From Clostridium pasteurianum DSM 525 = ATCC 6013 (lineage in GTDB: Bacteria; Bacillota; Clostridia; Clostridiales; Clostridiaceae): a DNA stretch of 64,000 nucleotides. This document shows, one piece after another, positions 3,035-36,884 of the stretch (positions within the stretch are counted from its first letter, which is position 1; the number at the start of each line of letters is the position of its first letter). A model generated the notes under the pieces. The model was not told the origin of the DNA. It worked only from the letters and a program-made list of their open reading frames with translations, and ran no database searches. The stretch spans positions 400,384-464,383 of the forward strand of contig NZ_CP009268.1 of NCBI RefSeq assembly GCF_000807255.1. The letters are read 5' to 3'. The translations under genes and the position numbers were made by a program.

Positions 3035-3676
3035 ATGAACATCATTTTTAATTTTTTAAGTAACCTATTAAGTAATATTTTCAATTTTACTGGAGATTGG
3101 GGATTAGCCATTGTTTTATTGACAGTGGTAGTGAGAATAGTACTTTCACCAATGTCTTTTAAGCAAAAGAAGTCTATGTATCAGCAGCAAAAGCTAAGTA
3201 TAAAAATGAAGGAAATTAATGAGAAGTATAAAAACGATAAAGTTAAGCTTGAAGAGGAACAGAAAAAGCATGCTGCGGAGAGTGCAAAAAGTATGTTTGG
3301 ATGTTTAGTTACATTTTTGCAGTTACCTATATTAATGACAATGTGGACTGTAATCAACAAACTACCTGTAAGTGCTGGAACTATGCTTATACCTTGGGTA
3401 TCTAGTATCAAATTATCTGATAGCTATTTTATTGTACCTCTGATATATATCCTTGCATCTTTAACTCCTAGTTTACTTTCCTATATAAGTTTTTTCAAAA
3501 TTGAAGGTCAGGCCAAGATAACCAAAGGAAATATTATAATAATGGCAGTGTTTGGGTTGATCGTTGCCAAAGCAGCGCCTATTGCAGTGGGAATATATCT
3601 TATAACCACCAGCTTATTTAATTTTATCGAAGAACTTGCATTTAGATTATATATGAGAAAAGTTAAAACTGTATAA
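3035..3676 (+). CDS. yidC: YidC/Oxa1-family membrane protein insertase (short SpoIIIJ/YqjG-type)
   Basis: GDWGLAIVLLTVVVRIVLSPM matches the conserved first-transmembrane motif of YidC; about 210 aa with 5 transmembrane segments. Confidence 0.6.
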   Translation: MNIIFNFLSNLLSNIFNFTGDWGLAIVLLTVVVRIVLSPMSFKQKKSMYQQQKLSIKMKEINEKYKNDKVKLEEEQKKHAAESAKSMFGCLVTFLQLPILMTMWTVINKLPVSAGTMLIPWVSSIKLSDSYFIVPLIYILASLTPSLLSYISFFKIEGQAKITKGNIIIMAVFGLIVAKAAPIAVGIYLITTSLFNFIEELAFRLYMRKVKTV

Positions 3677-3687
3677 TAAAAAATTAT

Positions 3688-3732
3688 GGAATCATGGCAC
3701 TAGTTTTTCTGTCATGATTCTTTTGTCATAGA
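3688..3732. terminator. Bidirectional hairpin terminator between convergent yidC and tetR
   Basis: Hairpin gaatcatg...catgattc with T-runs on both sides. Confidence 0.4.
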
Positions 3733-14132: not shown

Positions 14133-14240
14133 CTACATGAACAGTTATGTTTGAGGTGTAGGATTCGTTGTATCCGAAGTTAAGCCCTTGGAGTGTCATA
14201 TCAAACGAAAGTAGTGTATTCTTTTAGAATTACAAAATCG
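14133..14240 (+). mobile_element. Probable IS605-family right-end (RE) segment downstream of the tnpB remnant
   Basis: By position only; contains short hairpins (ttcg..cgaa) but I could not resolve the RE stem-loop. Confidence 0.3.
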
Positions 14241-14656
14241 GACACATTGAACGGGGAATTAAACAAGCTTTATGGAGTTCTATAAAGTTTTGGCAACGGT
14301 ATAGTACTATTCTTTTGGTTGTTAGGATTTATATTTAGATTTGGAGGATTTTTAATTCATATGCTGCTTATAGTAGCAGTGTTAGTATTTATAGTGAATG
14401 TAATTACAGGAAGAAAAAATAAGGGATAATTATGTATAATAATATTTTTTAATAATCTATGTGGATTTCTATAATGAAATTTACATAGGTTATTTTTGTT
14501 TATATTATATAGATATCCAATTTGGTTATTAAATATTAATAAGCATAAATAATCTGAATAGTCTAGCCTAAAAAATTAAAGCTTACTTATAGTTGACAAA
14601 TCAACTTATAGTTGTATAGTATTACTTATAGTGAATTTTAAGTGGGAGAATTGTAT

Positions 14657-16084
14657 ATGGAAGAAAAAAATTATAAAAATAGATGGAAAATTCTAGCCGT
14701 AGTTTTGCTATCTCCTTTTATGGGTAATCTGGATAGCAGTATTGTAAACATAGCACTGCCGATGATATCAAAACATCTATCTGTAGAGATAAATAGTATA
14801 CAGTGGGTAGTAACCAGTTATTTAATAGTAATATCGGCTTTTGTGCTTATATTTGGAAAATTATCAGATAAATTTGGAAGAAATATCATCTTTAATTATG
14901 GATTTCTTATATTTGGTCTTGGATCTTTTTTATGTGCTATTTCTAACACTCTGAGTTTTTTGGTTTTTTCAAGAGTAGTTCAGGCTTTGGGAGCAGCTAT
15001 GTTTATGTCTGCAAATCAATCTATATTGGCAATTACCTTTCCAAAGAATGAAAGGGGAAGAGCTTTTGGACTACTTGGAAGTACTGTAGCTATAGGAACT
15101 ATGCTTGGACCTCCTATTGGCGGCTTAATGGTTCAGTTTTTTAATTGGCAGTCTATATTTTTAATAAATATACCCATCTCTATTTTGGCTTTTGTTTCAG
15201 GGAAAATAATACTTCCTAAGGAAGAGATAAGTAGAGATATTTCAAAATTTGATTTAAAAGGAGCTATTTTACTTATAGTTTTTATAGTATCTCTTTTCTG
15301 GTCACTTTTAAAAGGAGAAGATTTAGGGTGGAGCAATGAAAGAATACTTATAAGTTTTGTAATAGCCATTTTGTGTGGAATAGGTTTTTATTTTATAGAG
15401 AAAAAAGCAGAAGATCCTATAATAGATCTATCTATGTTTAAAAATAAATTATTTGATATAAGTATATTATGCGCGTTTATATCCTTTGTAGTTTTGTTTT
15501 GCGTAAATATAATTCAACCTTTTTATCTTCAGGATGCCATAAAAATATCTCCAGCAACTTCAGGGATTTTAATGATGGCTATTCCAGTGAGTATCGCTTT
15601 GATTGCCCCTTTAAGCGGATATTTATCAGATAGATTAAGCGGAGAAATTTTAACGATTTTTGGATTGCTTATTATGTCCATTGGACTATTTAGCATGTCT
15701 TTTTTAAATGCCACCTCCAGTTATATACATATAGCTATAAGCATTGCCATAATAGGTATAGGAAATGGATTGTTTCAAGCCCCTAATAATGCTATTGTAA
15801 TGTCCTTAGTTTCGAAAGACAAATTGGGAGTAGTGGGCAGTATAAATGCTCTAGTAAGGAATGTGGGCATGGTTTCAGGAATAACATTTTCTGTTGCACT
15901 TTTGTACAATAGAATGAGCAGCAAAATAGGTCATAGAGTTACGGGCTACGTAAGCGGAAGACCGGAAATCTTCTTATATGCAATGAGGATAGTATATATG
16001 AGTACGGCAGTCATATGTATTTTGGGGATGCTGCTTACTATAATCAGAATTTTAAAGGAAAGACAAACAAGAAGATCCATATAA
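14657..16084 (+). CDS. MFS transporter (DHA2-like drug:H+ antiporter)
   Basis: 14-transmembrane pattern; motif SDKFGRN; RBS GGGAGAA 6 nt before the ATG at 14657. Confidence 0.75.
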   Translation: MEEKNYKNRWKILAVVLLSPFMGNLDSSIVNIALPMISKHLSVEINSIQWVVTSYLIVISAFVLIFGKLSDKFGRNIIFNYGFLIFGLGSFLCAISNTLSFLVFSRVVQALGAAMFMSANQSILAITFPKNERGRAFGLLGSTVAIGTMLGPPIGGLMVQFFNWQSIFLINIPISILAFVSGKIILPKEEISRDISKFDLKGAILLIVFIVSLFWSLLKGEDLGWSNERILISFVIAILCGIGFYFIEKKAEDPIIDLSMFKNKLFDISILCAFISFVVLFCVNIIQPFYLQDAIKISPATSGILMMAIPVSIALIAPLSGYLSDRLSGEILTIFGLLIMSIGLFSMSFLNATSSYIHIAISIAIIGIGNGLFQAPNNAIVMSLVSKDKLGVVGSINALVRNVGMVSGITFSVALLYNRMSSKIGHRVTGYVSGRPEIFLYAMRIVYMSTAVICILGMLLTIIRILKERQTRRSI

Positions 16085-31447: not shown

Positions 31448-32554
31448 TTACTTCTGGCACAACAGCTCATTTAATTGTCCTAAAAGATTACTCCCACCTG
31501 AAATTGATATATTGCCAACCTTATCACATATCTTTTCCAAGTACTCCATTTCTTTAAGTTTGTAAAGTGTTTCATTTTCATCCAAAAGTTTTGCCGTATT
31601 TAATAGGCTTCTTGTAGATGCAACCTCTTCACGCCTTGATATCACATTGGCTTGTGCTTTCTTTTCTGCAATTAAAACAGTATTCATTATATCTCTGATT
31701 TCTCCAGGCAATATGATATCCTTTATACCGGCATCAATAAATTCAACATAATATTCCCCTTGCTTTTCTTTAAGCTTTGAGAGTATAAAACCTGCAATCT
31801 CATCTTTTTGGTTTAAAAGTTCATCAAACTTAAATCTTCCAACATACTCACGAAGAACCATTTGAGAAAAAATATAAATTTGTGTTTTATAATCTTTGAT
31901 TTCAGATATAAGCTTAACAGCATCTATTATTTTAAAACTGCATACAAAATTGATACGTAAAGAAACTCTATCTGTAGTTAGAATTTCTTGACCTGAAATA
32001 TCCAGTTGTTGAATTCTTACGTCAATAAGTTCAAAGGTCACTTTAATTTTGCTATTCCAAAAGAAATAAATACCACTTGAAAGTTCTCTTTGAAATTTGC
32101 TATCAAAGTATACAACTGCTTTTTCGCCTTCAGAAACCTCAATTTTAATATAGAGCTTTTCAGTAATATATTTAAATATATTTTTATCAATCTCCTTCTT
32201 AACTTCTGGATTTGATATATCAATAACATCAAAGGTATGCTTCTTTAAAATATTCCAAAAAGCATATTCGCCACTTGTAAGAGTGTCTGTTATTCTTCCA
32301 TCTATATAATGTATGGCTACTTTATTGTCAGGTACATTTATAACTGTTACACTTTTCTCAAAATTTTCATCCTTTGTAAGCACATTAATATCAATTCCTG
32401 CTGTATTAACAACCTGACTGCTGTCTATACTTACTTTTGCTATTGTATAACCCATCCATGATAAATAGGAGTGCTTACCTGAATTCAACATTTTTATAAA
32501 TTTACCATACTTAAATAAGTATCCTCTTTCGTTTTCATTAATAATAATCTTCAT
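31448..32554 (-). CDS. SPFH/band-7 (stomatin/HflC-like) domain protein lacking an obvious transmembrane anchor
   Basis: The C-terminal half matches the SPFH core (TTDRVSLRINFVCSFKIID..., LREYVGRFKFDELL, IKDIILPGEIRDIMN, AEKKAQANVI); RBS AAAGAGGT before MKIIINE. Confidence 0.6.
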   Translation of the reverse strand: MKIIINENERGYLFKYGKFIKMLNSGKHSYLSWMGYTIAKVSIDSSQVVNTAGIDINVLTKDENFEKSVTVINVPDNKVAIHYIDGRITDTLTSGEYAFWNILKKHTFDVIDISNPEVKKEIDKNIFKYITEKLYIKIEVSEGEKAVVYFDSKFQRELSSGIYFFWNSKIKVTFELIDVRIQQLDISGQEILTTDRVSLRINFVCSFKIIDAVKLISEIKDYKTQIYIFSQMVLREYVGRFKFDELLNQKDEIAGFILSKLKEKQGEYYVEFIDAGIKDIILPGEIRDIMNTVLIAEKKAQANVISRREEVASTRSLLNTAKLLDENETLYKLKEMEYLEKICDKVGNISISGGSNLLGQLNELLCQK

Positions 32555-32921
32555 AATATTAACCTCTTTTACTAATAAAATTTTGATATAAGCTGTAATG
32601 CTCACATAATCTCTGCGGAATTTTAGTTAAATCATATAAAAAATATCAAGTCAAAGCTGCTGACCATATTTTTTATATGCCTAGCTCATATTAATTTACC
32701 TCGGCTCCTTCACATTTCAGTAAAGTCATGGAAATAAAAAATACAAAGCGGTATCCCTAAAATTTCAAGGCATTAATTACATCATTATAGTAGTGAATTC
32801 TTATGTCTACCTTTAATGTATACTATAATTGAGCACTACAGCTTAACACCATTTAATCTAAGACTTGGAAGGTCTTATTTTGAGAAGGTTTTAAACCTAA
32901 ACATAAAACATCGTCTGATTA

Positions 32922-32971
32922 CTCTACCAACTGAGATAACTGTATAGTCACAGTAGGGGATTCGAACCCCT
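32922..32971 (-). ncRNA. Permuted tRNA-like element (T-arm, closed acceptor-like hairpin, D-arm); candidate Y-RNA (YrlA-like) tRNA-mimic module or tRNA remnant
   Basis: The minus strand reads AGGGG-TTCGAAT-CCCCT a CTGTGACTATACAG tTATCTCAGTTGGTAGAG: a canonical T-loop and D-loop with an intervening 5-bp hairpin, but no anticodon arm in tRNA order. Confidence 0.45.
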
Positions 32972-33105
32972 GACACATCAGGTAATGACAATTATTTCGG
33001 AATACTAAGAAGTTAATACCTCTAGCACCGTAAAGCCTTAAAAAGCTTTTACATAGAAATAATATGCCAAATATATAAAAAGCTTTCGCCTATATATTTT
33101 AATAA

Positions 33106-34338
33106 CTATCCTTTAACAACGCCAACTGTTTTGAGTTTTTTTAATGGATCAACTAAATCAGTTTGATTAAGCATAACTTCATCTATGTTCTTATATGCAA
33201 AACGGCTTTCCTCAGCCACGTCATTTTTTTTATTTTTACCTAATATTATTCCTGATTTTTTAAGATCATTCATAACTTCTTCTGTAGTAAAATTTTTCAT
33301 TGCAGCCTTTCTTGAATATCTTCTTCCTGCACCATGAGAGGAGGAACAAAAGCTTTCTTTATTTCCCTTTCCCTGTACAATATAACTGTAGGAGCCCATA
33401 GCTCCAGGAATAACAGCTAGTTCACCCTGTTTTGCTCTTGTTGCACCCTTTCTATGAACCCAAACATTTTTGCAATAATGATTTTCAAGACTTGCATAAT
33501 TATGATGACAGTTAATTTCCAATGTATATTCAATATTAAGATCAGTATATTTCTCCAGCCATTTTTCTATAATAATTGTAACGGCTGTTATCATTTTTTC
33601 CCTGTTTTCATAAGCAAAATCAAGAGCTAAATTCATCCAATCTATATATCTTTTACCTTCATCAGTATCTACAGGCAAAAAAGCCAATCTGTATTCCAAT
33701 GGTACAGCTGAATGCCATTTTTCATTGAGTTCTCTTGCCATTTTATTAAAATGATCACATACTCTTCTCCCAAAATTACGACTTCCTGAATGAAGCATTA
33801 TACCTAAATTTCCTTCTTCATCTTCTTGAAGTTCAATAAAGTGATTTCCACCTCCAAGAGTTCCTATTTGAAAGTATCCATCTTCAATCTGATCCAAAAG
33901 TTCAACATCCTTTTCATATTTATTCATTTCATTTTTGGCTTTATCAAGTGTATAGGAGCTTTGTATTGTCTTGTGATGTTTAAAGGAAACAGGTATATTT
34001 CTTAATATGTCTCCAATAATTCCCTGAATCAATGATCCATTTGGAGTTTTAATATCTTTTATATACTGTACCTTTATATTAGTTCCTACAAAAGCCATGC
34101 CACAACCTATATCTACACCAACAGCATTTGGAATAATAACTCCTTCAGCTGCAATGACTCCACCTATGGGCATTCCCTTTCCAGTATGTGTATCCGGCAT
34201 AAGTGATACCCACTTATGTATAAAGGGAAGTTGAGATAGATTGTATGCTTGTTCAAGGCAGCTTTCCTCTATACTAGTCTCACCTTGAAGCCATATTTTA
34301 ATTGGATGTTTTGTTTTTTTACTGCAAATGACAAACAT
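33106..34338 (-). CDS. rtcB: RtcB-family RNA 3'-phosphate/2',3'-cyclic-phosphate ligase
   Basis: Motifs MPDTHTGKG, AVGVDIGCGMAF, GGGNHFIEL, HSGSRNFG, CHHNYA, HRKGATRA, PGAMGSYSY and SSSHGAGR; RBS AAGGAG 8 nt before the ATG at 34338. Confidence 0.9.
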   Translation of the reverse strand: MFVICSKKTKHPIKIWLQGETSIEESCLEQAYNLSQLPFIHKWVSLMPDTHTGKGMPIGGVIAAEGVIIPNAVGVDIGCGMAFVGTNIKVQYIKDIKTPNGSLIQGIIGDILRNIPVSFKHHKTIQSSYTLDKAKNEMNKYEKDVELLDQIEDGYFQIGTLGGGNHFIELQEDEEGNLGIMLHSGSRNFGRRVCDHFNKMARELNEKWHSAVPLEYRLAFLPVDTDEGKRYIDWMNLALDFAYENREKMITAVTIIIEKWLEKYTDLNIEYTLEINCHHNYASLENHYCKNVWVHRKGATRAKQGELAVIPGAMGSYSYIVQGKGNKESFCSSSHGAGRRYSRKAAMKNFTTEEVMNDLKKSGIILGKNKKNDVAEESRFAYKNIDEVMLNQTDLVDPLKKLKTVGVVKG

Positions 34339-34668
34339 ATAGGTCACTCCTTGTTTATAATCTAAGATAAGCTATATAAATAGAGTTTTAATATCCTTTT
34401 GTGATACTTAACATCGTTATCCATGAACATAATCTCTCTTTATCCCCACAAATATGGGAGTATTAGATATGGTAGTCATCGGATAAAATTATTAATTGTT
34501 GAAGTTGAAGTGGCTTATCTATGTTTTAATATTAACATCACAAATAATAGTTTCCATTTAAAAAAAGTTGCGAACTTACTTTATTAATTGATTTTAAATT
34601 TATAAATTGATAGAATAAAATTTAATTGAGTATAATATCTTATACCTAAACACAGGAAGGTCAATTAT

Positions 34669-35910
34669 ATGAAGAATTTTTCAGAACTAATTAAAAACTT
34701 TGATAAAATTAGAGATTATATGAGAGATTTTTTTGTATATGGCTTTAAATCCAGAAGTAATTTTACTCAAAAAAGTCTCCGCACCTATGATAATGAGAAA
34801 AGAAGAATTGAAAGTTATCTAGGTGATTGCATAAAATATAACAATATGAATGGAGAAAAAAATACTTTTATCTCCTTAGACAGCTCCAGTGTAACTGAAA
34901 ATCCCCTTTATTCTGTTTGGAAGGCAAAGAGTTTCACAAACAATGATATAATGCTTCATTTCTATTTACTGGATATATTAACATATGAATCTTTACTTGA
35001 TATAGAACAATTGTCAGATAAAATTTGTGAGAGATATAGTACATGCTTTGACACTCAAACAGTAAGAAATAAAGTTAAAGAATCTGTAAAAGAGGGAATT
35101 TTAAACTCCTGCAAGCAGGGGAGAAAATTATACTATTCTCTATCAAGGGATTTTCTTAAAACATTAGTGAATAACTATGATGATATAATAGATGCTTTAA
35201 AATACTATCAGGCAATAGCACCTTTTGGTGTTATAGGCAGCTATATTCTTGACAATGAAGAAAATAAAAATGATATTTTCCACTTTAAACATCATTTTGT
35301 TGTCCATACACTAGAAGATAAAGTTCTACTTGAGATTTTAAAAGCCATAAATGAAAAAAGAGAGATAAATTTTATTAATAAAAGTCCACGTAGTGAATAT
35401 ATACTAAAAGTTTCTGGTGTACCCCTTAAAATATTTGTAAGTAATCAAACTGGCAGGCGTTACGTTAATATATACAATAAGAAAAGAAAGCGTTTTGTAA
35501 ATTACAGATTGGATTACATAAAGTCCGTTAATATATTGGATATATGTATAGAGTATGATTTTTTTAAGCAGAAACTGGAGAAAAATTTGGATAAATGCTG
35601 GGGAGTATCCTTTGGCAATAGCATTAGAGGTAAGACATTTTATGCTAAGTTTTATGTTGATGAGGAAAGGGAACTGTATATACTTGATCGCATAAAGAAA
35701 GAAGGTCGAAAGGGTACACTTAAAAAAGTTGATAAAAATATCTATATTTATTCAAAGGAAATCTTTGATACAAATGAAATAATGTCCTGGATAAAGAGTT
35801 TTACGGGAAGAATTATATCTATTGAAAGCGGAGACAAATTTGTAGATGAAAGATTTTATAGCGATATGAAAAAGATGAAAGAAATGTATTTAGGTGGTGA
35901 TACTGACTGA
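34669..35910 (+). CDS. WYL-domain transcriptional regulator (PafB/PafC-like; N-terminal wHTH, WYL, WCX)
   Basis: WYL-like block PLKIFVSNQTGRRYVNIYNKKRKRFVNYRLDYIKSV and a C-terminal WCX-like block. Confidence 0.6.
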   Translation: MKNFSELIKNFDKIRDYMRDFFVYGFKSRSNFTQKSLRTYDNEKRRIESYLGDCIKYNNMNGEKNTFISLDSSSVTENPLYSVWKAKSFTNNDIMLHFYLLDILTYESLLDIEQLSDKICERYSTCFDTQTVRNKVKESVKEGILNSCKQGRKLYYSLSRDFLKTLVNNYDDIIDALKYYQAIAPFGVIGSYILDNEENKNDIFHFKHHFVVHTLEDKVLLEILKAINEKREINFINKSPRSEYILKVSGVPLKIFVSNQTGRRYVNIYNKKRKRFVNYRLDYIKSVNILDICIEYDFFKQKLEKNLDKCWGVSFGNSIRGKTFYAKFYVDEERELYILDRIKKEGRKGTLKKVDKNIYIYSKEIFDTNEIMSWIKSFTGRIISIESGDKFVDERFYSDMKKMKEMYLGGDTD

Positions 35911-36884
35911 TGGAACTATTTTCTGAAATTTACAATTGTTATTATAATGTAATAACAAAAATTTTAAATACCTGTAGTAACACTCCTATTTCCAAAGAGG
36001 ATATAAGCAAAATTATTAAGGATAATGCTTTCTGTGAAAGTGCTTTTTATATATTTCCAAAACTTATAGATGGGGATTGGAATTTGATTACACAGGATAA
36101 AGAAAAATTTGTATCAAAATTAAAGGGAACCATTAAAAGGCCTGTAACACTTTTGGAAAAAGCCTGGTTAAAATCACTAATTCAAGATAAAAGAATATCA
36201 TTATTTTTAAAGGATGAGCAAATTAGAGTTTTAGATGAATATCTATCTGAAATTGAACCTCTGTTTAATGTAAATGACTTTTACAACTACGATACTTTTT
36301 CAGATGGTGATGATTATGAGAATCCTGAATATATACGTAATTTTCGATCCATATTATCCGCTTTTAAAAGTAAACAAGCTGTAACAATATCCTTTGAAAG
36401 CAGTAAGGGTAATCGTATCACAGGAAATTATATCCCTGTAAAAATAGAGTATTCAAATAAAAATGATAAATTTAGAGTTCACACTTTTAGAATATACCAT
36501 GGGAAAATTAGAAATACTGAAATAATAAATATAGGAAGAGTTAAAAGTGTACAGGCCTCTAAGGAAAGTTTTAATTTTAGTCTAAATATTGATATTTATG
36601 AAAAAATCAATAAATGCAAAGAACCTGTTGTAATAGAAATATCTGATGAACGTAATGCATTGGAGAGGTGTATGCTAAATTTTGCAAGTTTTCAAAAACA
36701 TACAGAATACCATAAAGATACTCAAAAGTATATAACTTATATTTATTATGATATGAAGGATGAAACTGAACTATTAATACGGATACTTTCCTTTGGTCCT
36801 GTAATAAAAGTGTTAGGTCCTGATAGATTTTTAAATATTTTAAAGAAGAGAATAAAAAGACAGGTAGAGTTGATGGAAATTTAG
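35910..36884 (+). CDS. WYL-domain protein, a tandem paralog of the upstream regulator (PafC-like)
   Basis: WYL-like block AVTISFESSKGNRITGNYIPVKIEYSNKNDKFRVHTFRIYHGKIRNTEIINIGRVKSV; WCX-like C-terminus LIRILSFGPVIKVLGPDRF; ATG overlaps the previous TGA. Confidence 0.55.
   Translation: MELFSEIYNCYYNVITKILNTCSNTPISKEDISKIIKDNAFCESAFYIFPKLIDGDWNLITQDKEKFVSKLKGTIKRPVTLLEKAWLKSLIQDKRISLFLKDEQIRVLDEYLSEIEPLFNVNDFYNYDTFSDGDDYENPEYIRNFRSILSAFKSKQAVTISFESSKGNRITGNYIPVKIEYSNKNDKFRVHTFRIYHGKIRNTEIINIGRVKSVQASKESFNFSLNIDIYEKINKCKEPVVIEISDERNALERCMLNFASFQKHTEYHKDTQKYITYIYYDMKDETELLIRILSFGPVIKVLGPDRFLNILKKRIKRQVELMEI

Follow-up and report, generated by a model that had tools for sequence, protein, structure and literature searches.

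What does a tRNA-shaped RNA do when it is encoded behind the gene of an RNA repair ligase and is itself not a tRNA? The question is raised by a 64,000-nucleotide stretch of the Clostridium pasteurianum DSM 525 (= ATCC 6013) genome (contig NZ_CP009268.1, positions 400,384 to 464,383), hereafter called the window, on which all window coordinates below are counted and in which the element lies on the minus strand. A preliminary description had noticed there a T arm, a hairpin and a D arm in permuted order just downstream of the RNA ligase gene rtcB, and had put them forward as a candidate Y RNA of the YrlA type. We find that this YrlA-type permuted tRNA mimic stands at the centre of a multi-domain structured RNA of ~470 nucleotides (about 450-480), and that the conserved partner of the module is a gene overlooked in that description, which encodes a protein of the SPFH/Band-7 family.

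A permuted tRNA-like module and its SPFH neighbour

The rtcB gene of the window (34347-33106, minus strand; 413 amino acids; Pfam RtcB, 3.1e-113) is directly followed by a gap, first given as 500 base pairs and measured here as 551 nucleotides (33105-32555), which contains the module in the same orientation (32981-32915; 69 bits with R1, the covariance model built on its four-helix structure). The order of its parts is closing stem, variable loop, T arm, capped hairpin, UA, D arm and closing stem. The 5-base-pair closing stem CUGAU/AUCAG (32981-32977 / 32919-32915), which had been missed, occupies the position of the tRNA anticodon stem; directly 3' of its 5' strand comes the 5-nucleotide variable loop GUGUC, then the T arm AGGGG-UUCGAAU-CCCCU (32971-32955) and the acceptor-like hairpin (32954-32939). 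This hairpin had been read as a closed 5-base-pair stem; its existence stands, and the Rfam alignment gives it a 6-base-pair stem, ACUGUG/UACAGU, capped by a 4-nucleotide loop. A UA resembling U8-A9 (32938-32937) and the D arm UCUC-AGUUGGUA-GAGU (32936-32921) follow, then A26 and the 3' strand of the closing stem. The three arms are thus present on the minus strand as they had been described. Read from the sequence in tRNA numbering, U8, A14, the G15:C48 pair, G18, G19, G46, U54, U55, C56 and A58 are all kept. The module is a tRNA-body fold made of elbow, acceptor and D arm, the acceptor end of which is capped by a loop and the anticodon stem of which is left open and continues into the remainder of the RNA.

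That the element is not a tRNA gene is borne out by ARAGORN, which calls zero tRNAs in the window, and by the Rfam tRNA model, which scores 14.3 bits on the module region for a cut-off of 29. According to both, the standard-order cloverleaf with an anticodon loop is absent from the module; a decoding tRNA cannot form from it, because its closing stem carries no anticodon loop. The remark that no anticodon arm follows in tRNA order also holds, with the addition that an anticodon-arm-like hairpin, described below, is found ~40 nucleotides downstream (32876-32860). In a permissive Rfam scan (601 nucleotides searched), YrlA was the sole credible match (32916-32979, 32.2 bits, E = 4e-05), and no Rfam family reached its gathering score within the gap.

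Relatives were collected in two sets of 80 loci each, one encoding RtcB relatives (the RtcB-seeded set), the other drawn from a metagenome scan seeded with the SPFH protein (the SPFH-seeded set). A pattern search of the RtcB-seeded loci found the permuted order just 3' of rtcB in 10 Bacillota loci and near rtcB in 2 Bacteroidota loci, and model R1 matched 17 RtcB-seeded sources, the window included, at 59-78 bits. In the SPFH-seeded set, R1 detected the module in at least 41 of the 80 loci, with weaker matches at the same place in others. The alignment of 17 module sequences, fitted to R1, has 90.2% of its cells paired, compared with 39-45% when the partners are slid by 1-3 columns; both sides change at 16 of the 20 pairs, and the covariation score is 0.686, compared with 0.08-0.14 in the slid controls. 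Neither the pairing nor the covariation score was matched by any of 500 shuffles. All four helices are supported by covariation, including the capped acceptor hairpin and the closing stem, and the compensatory changes can be seen directly in the raw sequences. The permuted succession of T arm, capped acceptor and D arm proposed at the outset is therefore confirmed by the aligned YrlA core and the co-varying four-helix fold, and the same architecture recurs at the same place in dozens of loci. The YrlA match and this recurrence at one genomic position with compensatory changes show that the module is not a chance match. An extension of the closing stem, pairing CAUU with GAUG in the window, was also considered and rejected: the pairing is absent in L001, the sole relative checked (by eye).

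The gene that follows the module on the same strand (32554-31448, ATG at 32554; 368 amino acids; Pfam Band_7, 1e-29; stomatin matches among solved structures; ribosome-binding site AAAAGAGG at 32570-32563) belongs to the SPFH or "slipin family". Among the RtcB-seeded loci, the module is present in 15 of the 17 that are SPFH-positive and in 1 of the 63 that are SPFH-negative (Fisher p = 3e-13), this single locus being a contig that ends before an SPFH gene would appear. In the Enterococcus, Vagococcus and Listeria loci, rtcB and genes for WYL-domain proteins are present and the SPFH gene and the module are both absent. In the SPFH-seeded loci, the module precedes the SPFH start by 300-450 nucleotides and has the same orientation. 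Three gene orders are encountered: in the first, which is that of the window, the WYL genes diverge from rtcB-RNA-SPFH; the second reads WYL-WYL-terminator-RNA-SPFH-rtcB; the third, found in Bacteroidota, reads RNA-SPFH-rtcB. The position of the RNA immediately 5' of SPFH is kept in all three, wherever the SPFH gene is on the contig, and in most related loci with sufficient flanks rtcB lies upstream or downstream of the RNA.

The larger RNA around the module

The gap measures ~450-550 nucleotides in most loci, and its conserved blocks span the distance from the rtcB stop codon to the ribosome-binding site of SPFH. In 40 distinct loci the anchors occur in the same order: GCGGUGC, GUAUGCC 15-45 nucleotides further on, one to three T-loops, and GGAUACCG at 232-420 nucleotides past the first anchor. 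The 5' domain of the window RNA consists of two helices, P1 (33052-33030; GUAAAAGC / GGCUUUAC, preceded by a conserved CUAUG) and P2 (33028-33002), the latter being closed by the conserved GUGC / GUAU. In a plain MAFFT alignment of 34 loci, which was not fitted to a model, 85.3% of the cells of the domain are paired, compared with 31-56% for slid partners. All seven pairs of P1 co-vary (89.5% of cells paired); in P2, the closing pairs G.U, U-A, G.U and C-G are conserved and the next two pairs co-vary strongly. Just past the rtcB stop codon, a GAAA-tetraloop hairpin (33100-33069) containing GGCGAAAG (33090-33083) can be drawn from the sequence; its 3' arm overlaps a -10-like TATATT (33075-33070), and a hairpin is seen by eye at the same position in several loci in which rtcB comes first.

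The 3' domain (32767-32588) is described by a second covariance model, R2, made of its four helices: the long-range helix PLR (32764-32757 / 32626-32619), which joins the bases just 5' of the invariant GGGAUACCGC (32757-32748) to those just 3' of GCUnAAC, the inner helix PIN (32738-32731 / 32702-32695), the hairpin PHP (32725-32708) and the terminal hairpin PT (32618-32602). The alignment of all loci at once by MAFFT and RNAalifold returned almost no structure, the 3' domain being too divergent; after this all-locus pass, the domain was aligned within a subgroup first and with covariance models next. R2 scores 67 bits in the window and yields 39 matches, all directly 5' of SPFH, among which ~17 are distinct loci outside the seed, and zero matches in five control loci. 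In the model-fitted alignment, 80.1% of the cells are paired, compared with 33-45% when slid, both sides change at 29 of the 31 pairs, and the covariation score is 0.633, compared with 0.08-0.17 in the slid controls. PLR is paired in 89.6% of cells, with 4-6 pair types per position. Between PIN and the UUUAAC block, the window carries an extra AT-rich insert of ~60-70 nucleotides relative to its relatives (32694-32627, minus strand); it holds a promoter-like TTGATA-18-TAAAAT, the -10 box of which overlaps the 3' strand of PLR.

The stretch that separates the module from the 3' domain holds a series of further elements. The first is a degenerate second T arm, AGGUUUAAAACCU (32898-32886); in the closest relatives, L001 and L081, the sequence aligned with it is the intact GAGGGUUCGACUCCCUC. 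Many loci have a second or a third T arm, and in some this stretch also houses another complete permuted module or a full tRNA-like gene. When the gaps of the window and of 12 relatives were scanned with the Rfam families at gathering score, the only call was such a full tRNA-like gene in L002 (50.9 bits), the sole relative of the 12 to have one. In L011, just upstream of SPFH (~3500-3690), a ~150-nucleotide insert stands between GCCGGUAGCUCAAAAGGAUAGAGC, which resembles the acceptor strand and D arm of a tRNA, and a T arm with a 3' acceptor strand; the permuted module is also present further upstream. The second element is the hairpin AAGAC-CUUCCAA-GUCUU (32876-32860), which resembles an anticodon arm by its 5-base-pair stem and its 7-nucleotide loop of the form CU-NNN-AA. 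The AAGAC/GUCUU stem with the CU-NNN-AA frame is found, by simple count and with no statistics applied, in 9 sequences among the 40 loci, one of them with another gene order, and the middle triplets in these 9 sequences are of 8 kinds (UCC, CUC, GUC, GUA, GUU, GAA, UAC and ACC). In other loci, CUGAUAA loops are borne by different stems. The third element is an extended hairpin, with an outer helix PO seen in single-sequence folds (GGUGUUAA / UUAAUGCC, 32850-32843 / 32776-32769) and, inside it, a helix PX predicted by RNAalifold on 19 loci (AUUAUAGUA / UACUAUAAU, 32829-32821 / 32792-32784). The nested arrangement recurs qualitatively in the single-sequence folds of most loci, and RNAalifold returned no structure from the alignment of the PO/PX segment.

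Possible roles: partner of a repair complex or leader of a messenger

The model to which we would give an even chance makes this RNA the partner of an SPFH-RtcB repair complex. The tRNA-shaped domain and the flanking 5' and 3' domains would act as one RNA together with an SPFH oligomer and RtcB. The SPFH oligomer would offer a docking surface to the flanking domains and to the invariant single-stranded blocks GGAUACCG, CCAUA, GCCGG and GCUnAAC. The tRNA-like body, together with the anticodon-like hairpin set apart from it, would constitute a tRNA-shaped handle, by which RtcB and enzymes acting on tRNA would be brought in or oriented, or which would act as a competitor against toxins that cleave tRNA. 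The analogues we propose are Ro60 with YrlA and the major vault protein with vault RNA.

The SPFH protein belongs to a family of at least 5783 related clusters, named "slipin family protein" by NCBI. An AlphaFold model computed with 30 homologs (predicted local distance difference test, pLDDT, 83.8) has three beta-meander units at its N-terminus, followed by the SPFH domain and a ~60-residue helix. We did not notice an obvious N-terminal membrane segment in the protein (31448-32554). With this model as query, Foldseek aligns stomatin, HflK/C and prohibitin over ~230-270 columns, and the major vault protein over ~400 columns, which is the whole query, with E = 2e-10. As far as the model goes, the domain order would be that of the major vault protein, namely beta-repeats, an SPFH-like shoulder and a long helix, and a vault-like architecture is suggestive only. 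The likeness would extend to the association of a small structured RNA with a cage-type protein. On the other hand, the SPFH partner has 368 amino acids whereas the major vault protein has ~860, the vault RNA and the window RNA are unrelated, and the cage and its RNA binding are known for the vault and here only proposed. A 2019 preprint on bacterial homologs of the vault protein was considered as a precedent and set aside: it deals with different, longer proteins and with no RNA. We regard as unlikely, though worth stating, the bolder form of the model, in which the RNA, a miniature vault-like SPFH shell and RtcB would constitute a bacterial RNA-repair particle, with the hairpin of fast-evolving triplet serving as toxin bait or sensor. 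A link between SPFH proteins and RtcB receives circumstantial support from Anabaena, in which the deletion of TrcR, the repressor of a translational-stress regulon, causes strong de-repression of rtcB and also of a slipin gene (PMC10272220).

Several points weigh against the partner model. Its functional steps are inferred from synteny and mimicry. The middle region of the RNA, comprising the second T arm, the anticodon-like hairpin and PO/PX, was assessed qualitatively. Covariance models were used to fit the alignments of the module and of the 3' domain, a procedure biased towards the modelled structure; the margin over the controls is large nonetheless. A long-range pairing that would tie the 5' end of the RNA to its 3' end (GCGGUG with UACCGC, and GGUAU with AUACC) was rejected, the motifs being near-invariant and their variable flanks without compensation. 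Finally, the RNA reaches the ribosome-binding site of SPFH without a terminator, which suits a leader acting in cis at least equally well.

This leader is the strongest of the alternatives, and we hold it as a tentative possibility. The RNA would be the ~470-nucleotide 5' untranslated leader of the SPFH (or SPFH-rtcB) mRNA and would function as a damage sensor: under tRNA damage, its tRNA-like parts would be cleaved or bound, the 3' domain would refold and the repair genes would be switched on, and the released fragments could in addition signal to the WYL regulators. In its favour, SPFH always comes directly after the RNA on the same strand, the RNA extends to within ~20-40 nucleotides of the ribosome-binding site, and no terminator is predicted between the RNA and SPFH. 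In the second gene order it heads the whole SPFH-rtcB unit, after a promoter-like box. Many loci have a conserved hairpin CCCGCA...UGCGGG followed by CAUUUUCAG just before the ribosome-binding site. The WYL genes are syntenic, and tRNA fragments are the proposed inducer of the Salmonella rtc operon (PMC7790460).

The transcription signals can be accommodated by both readings. No terminator-like site is predicted in 32400-34800. A -10-like box is located 18-27 nucleotides upstream of P1 in 25 of 34 loci, and better promoter-like boxes are found where rtcB does not precede the RNA, with GTGATA-17-TAAAAT past the terminator of the second WYL gene and, in two loci, a perfect TTGACA-17-TAGAAT upstream of the RNA. 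These boxes and the absence of a terminator lead us to place the probable 5' end of the RNA ~10-15 nucleotides before P1 and to suggest that it is co-transcribed with SPFH, with or without later processing. As there is no intrinsic terminator before SPFH, transcription would probably yield the RNA as the leader of the SPFH message, and processing may follow. Nine loci (L103, L110, L118, L129, L131, L136, L140, L149 and L152) possess a conserved TTTTTTTCCGTGAtAA box 40-60 nucleotides upstream of P1, a candidate -35 region or WYL operator that follows the terminator of the second WYL gene and precedes the -10-like box of the RNA. Literature searches on expression of the C. acetobutylicum rtcB, or of a slipin gene with RtcB, found nothing direct.

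What makes us hesitate over a leader is the RNA itself. In the loci examined, the hairpin before the ribosome-binding site stays clear of that site and is not a canonical terminator (only 4 U's come after it in those from termite gut), and we did not find a mutually exclusive alternative fold. The size of the RNA, the number of its co-varying helices and its multiple tRNA-like modules go beyond those of the cis-regulators known to us. Furthermore, tRNA-like modules are typical processing sites and could free the RNA from the mRNA.

It is improbable, in our view, that the RNA is above all a decoy, the tRNA-like body and anticodon-like hairpin of which would attract tRNA-cleaving toxins, thereby sparing the tRNAs, with RtcB resealing the bait. 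The conservation of the AAGAC/GUCUU stem and of the CU-NNN-AA frame around a varied triplet is what an arms race would be expected to produce; RtcB is encoded next door, and competitive inhibition of an anticodon nuclease has been raised as a possible role of YrlA (Hughes et al., PMC7790460). Yet, in the window, the hairpin and the tRNA-like body are not connected in the geometry of a tRNA, only 9 of 40 loci have a hairpin with this stem, and the conserved 5' and 3' domains and the strict linkage to SPFH would be left unexplained. Moreover, the YrlA of Salmonella was not cleaved by the nuclease studied (PMC7790460).

Y RNAs, other known systems and the neighbouring genes

A YrlA RNA is defined by a tRNA-like module, by a presumed Rsr-binding motif, GNCGAAN0-1G, on the 5' side and by an rsr gene on the same strand within 4 kb, nearly all YrlA genes conforming to this last feature (Chen et al. 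2014, PMC4201824). Of these three features, only the tRNA-like module holds here. The resemblance of this module to that of YrlA is close: the circular permutation is the same, with variable loop, T arm, capped acceptor, UA, D arm and a stem at the position of the anticodon stem (PMC4201824; Wang et al. 2018, bioRxiv 10.1101/312249), the conserved T-loop and D-loop bases and the G15:C48 pair are the same, and the neighbourhood is of the same kind, an RtcB RNA-repair locus. It is nevertheless very improbable that the element is a canonical Y RNA of the YrlA class, binding an Rsr/Ro60 protein encoded elsewhere in the genome. YrlA is the best Rfam match and the order T-acceptor-D is its architecture (PMC4201824), but the alignment to RF02553 covers only model positions 23-86 of 114, which is the tRNA-like core without the Ro-binding part. 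The score of 32.2 bits is less than half the gathering score of 69, and eight relatives scored 30.5-38 bits, most of them aligned to the core only. The window does have a sequence that fits the Ro motif, GGCGAAAG, located 102 nucleotides upstream of the module in the local GAAA-tetraloop hairpin; such a motif is found upstream of the module in only 4 of the 40 loci, at inconsistent positions, and is thus not conserved. The window RNA has no Ro-binding stem formed by its 5' and 3' ends, is ~4 times as long as the 114-position YrlA model and possesses conserved 5' and 3' domains of its own. No rsr gene is near it, the neighbouring genes and the nine window open reading frames of at least 480 amino acids that were scanned contain no TROVE domain, and the invariant neighbour is SPFH, whereas nearly all YrlA genes lie within 4 kb of rsr (PMC4201824). 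What survives of the original Y RNA proposal is therefore a permuted tRNA mimic next to rtcB.

The least probable reading, that the module is what remains of a tRNA array (the 3' half of one tRNA and the 5' half of another) or a permuted tRNA gene maturing to a working tRNA, can draw on the tRNA-like sequence of the T-loop and D-loop, the full tRNA-like gene of L002 and the tandem modules of several loci, but it is already contradicted by covariation, since decay would not preserve the capped hairpin and the closing stem that co-vary in 17 sequences, and also by the sub-threshold Rfam tRNA score, the lack of an anticodon loop on the closing stem and the absence of ordinary tRNA arrays from this position in all relatives.

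The preliminary description had also seen a possible stand-in for Ro60 in a 562-amino-acid HEAT-repeat protein (31234-29546, minus strand; tblastn and structure search) encoded further on along the same strand. The SPFH gene lies between the RNA and the HEAT gene, and this candidate is not supported: tblastn found no match (E <= 1e-5) to the HEAT protein in any of the 80 RtcB-seeded loci, and among solved structures only synthetic alpha-repeat proteins were matched, with no Ro60 match. A relative 24-25% identical is encoded 3' of rtcB only in L132 (5267-6082) and L146 (5293-6081), both of the second gene order. The HEAT protein is probably not a core part of the system, and its gene may be an occasional accessory. 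In the other direction, the plus strand carries the WYL genes (34669-36884; 413 and 324 amino acids; Pfam WYL 5.5e-05, PADLOC WYL 3e-10 and 2.8e-06), which diverge from rtcB and form a pair that is syntenic in most related loci. Other WYL pairs act as regulators, and by analogy this pair is a candidate for the same role.

The association of a tRNA mimic with rtcB and a Band-7 gene is not in itself new. Burroughs and Aravind predicted in 2016, as cited in a 2018 summary (bioRxiv 10.1101/312249), a Band-7-associated tRNA-like RNA (b7a-tRNA) near RtcB as a repair cofactor; according to the same source, YrlA occasionally adjoins a Band-7 gene (Wang et al. 2018) and the b7a-tRNA prediction was without experimental validation as of 2018. 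As in that prediction, the window brings together an RtcB gene, a Band-7/SPFH gene and a tRNA-like non-coding RNA, and the case of YrlA beside a Band-7 gene named in the summary is the very situation of the window. The b7a-tRNA, known to us through the description given there, is however said to strongly resemble authentic tRNA, whereas the window module is permuted and receives zero ARAGORN calls; large flanking domains are not mentioned in the summary. Of the traits of a b7a-tRNA so described, the adjacency to Band-7 and the RtcB locus are thus found in the window, and the unpermuted tRNA likeness is not.

Four Bacteroidales loci in which no SPFH gene was detected have an ARAGORN tRNA-like gene ~55-90 nucleotides past the rtcB match (L046, 5286-5359; L048, 1293-1364; L055, 1281-1355; L057, 7230-7313), the anticodon being undetermined in one of the four; these genes may be unpermuted relatives of the b7a-tRNA type, or ordinary tRNAs.

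A further comparison is with the ornate RNAs ROOL, GOLLD, OLE and raiA, which resemble the window RNA in their length of several hundred nucleotides, their numerous co-varying helices and their constant genomic surroundings; a location near tRNAs is also common for GOLLD and ROOL. Unlike the window RNA, these RNAs have Rfam families, which stay below gathering score in the window and in the gaps of 12 relatives; the window RNA also stands apart by its gene context and by the permuted tRNA mimic embedded in it. Our literature searches found no description of the structured domains of the larger RNA. What appears to be new, the b7a-tRNA being compared through the summary only, comprises the covariation evidence, a permuted fold of YrlA type free of Ro features, and the large surrounding RNA, which is lacking in Rfam 15.

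Elsewhere in the window (14185-14258, plus strand) there is a full-length RAGATH-18 RNA (RF03064; 72.7 bits for a cut-off of 44.9), ~380 nucleotides upstream of an MFS-transporter open reading frame (14642-16084).

The RNA has a tractable carrier in Clostridium acetobutylicum, the SPFH protein of which is 73% identical; in its rtcB-Band_7 gap (L161, JRWL01000004.1, 3547-4000) the module is found at 62.1 bits and the 3' domain at 65.8 bits. In the same locus (377-2031), a PrfH-like release factor and a second RtcB are encoded by a divergent pair that adjoins the rtcB-RNA-Band_7 unit, so that two distinct RtcB repair modules lie side by side in this organism.

In conclusion, bacterial Y RNAs are understood as partners of Ro60, and the function of their tRNA-like domain is unsettled. 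Our observations emphasize a permuted tRNA mimic that has neither Ro60 nor its binding site, that is contained in a larger RNA and that is strictly tied to SPFH in RtcB loci. They turn the b7a-tRNA prediction of 2016, as it is summarized in the later source, into a testable object: an RNA of ~470 nucleotides with a covariation-backed map and two covariance models, which current genome annotation misses because it is absent from Rfam 15. If the reading as a repair particle were true, the SPFH protein and its RNA would constitute a third bacterial counterpart to the pairings of Ro with Y RNA and of vault with vault RNA. More generally, the presence of the same fold beside two different partners points to the tRNA-shaped module as a portable unit that RNA-repair systems combine with at least two different scaffold proteins.

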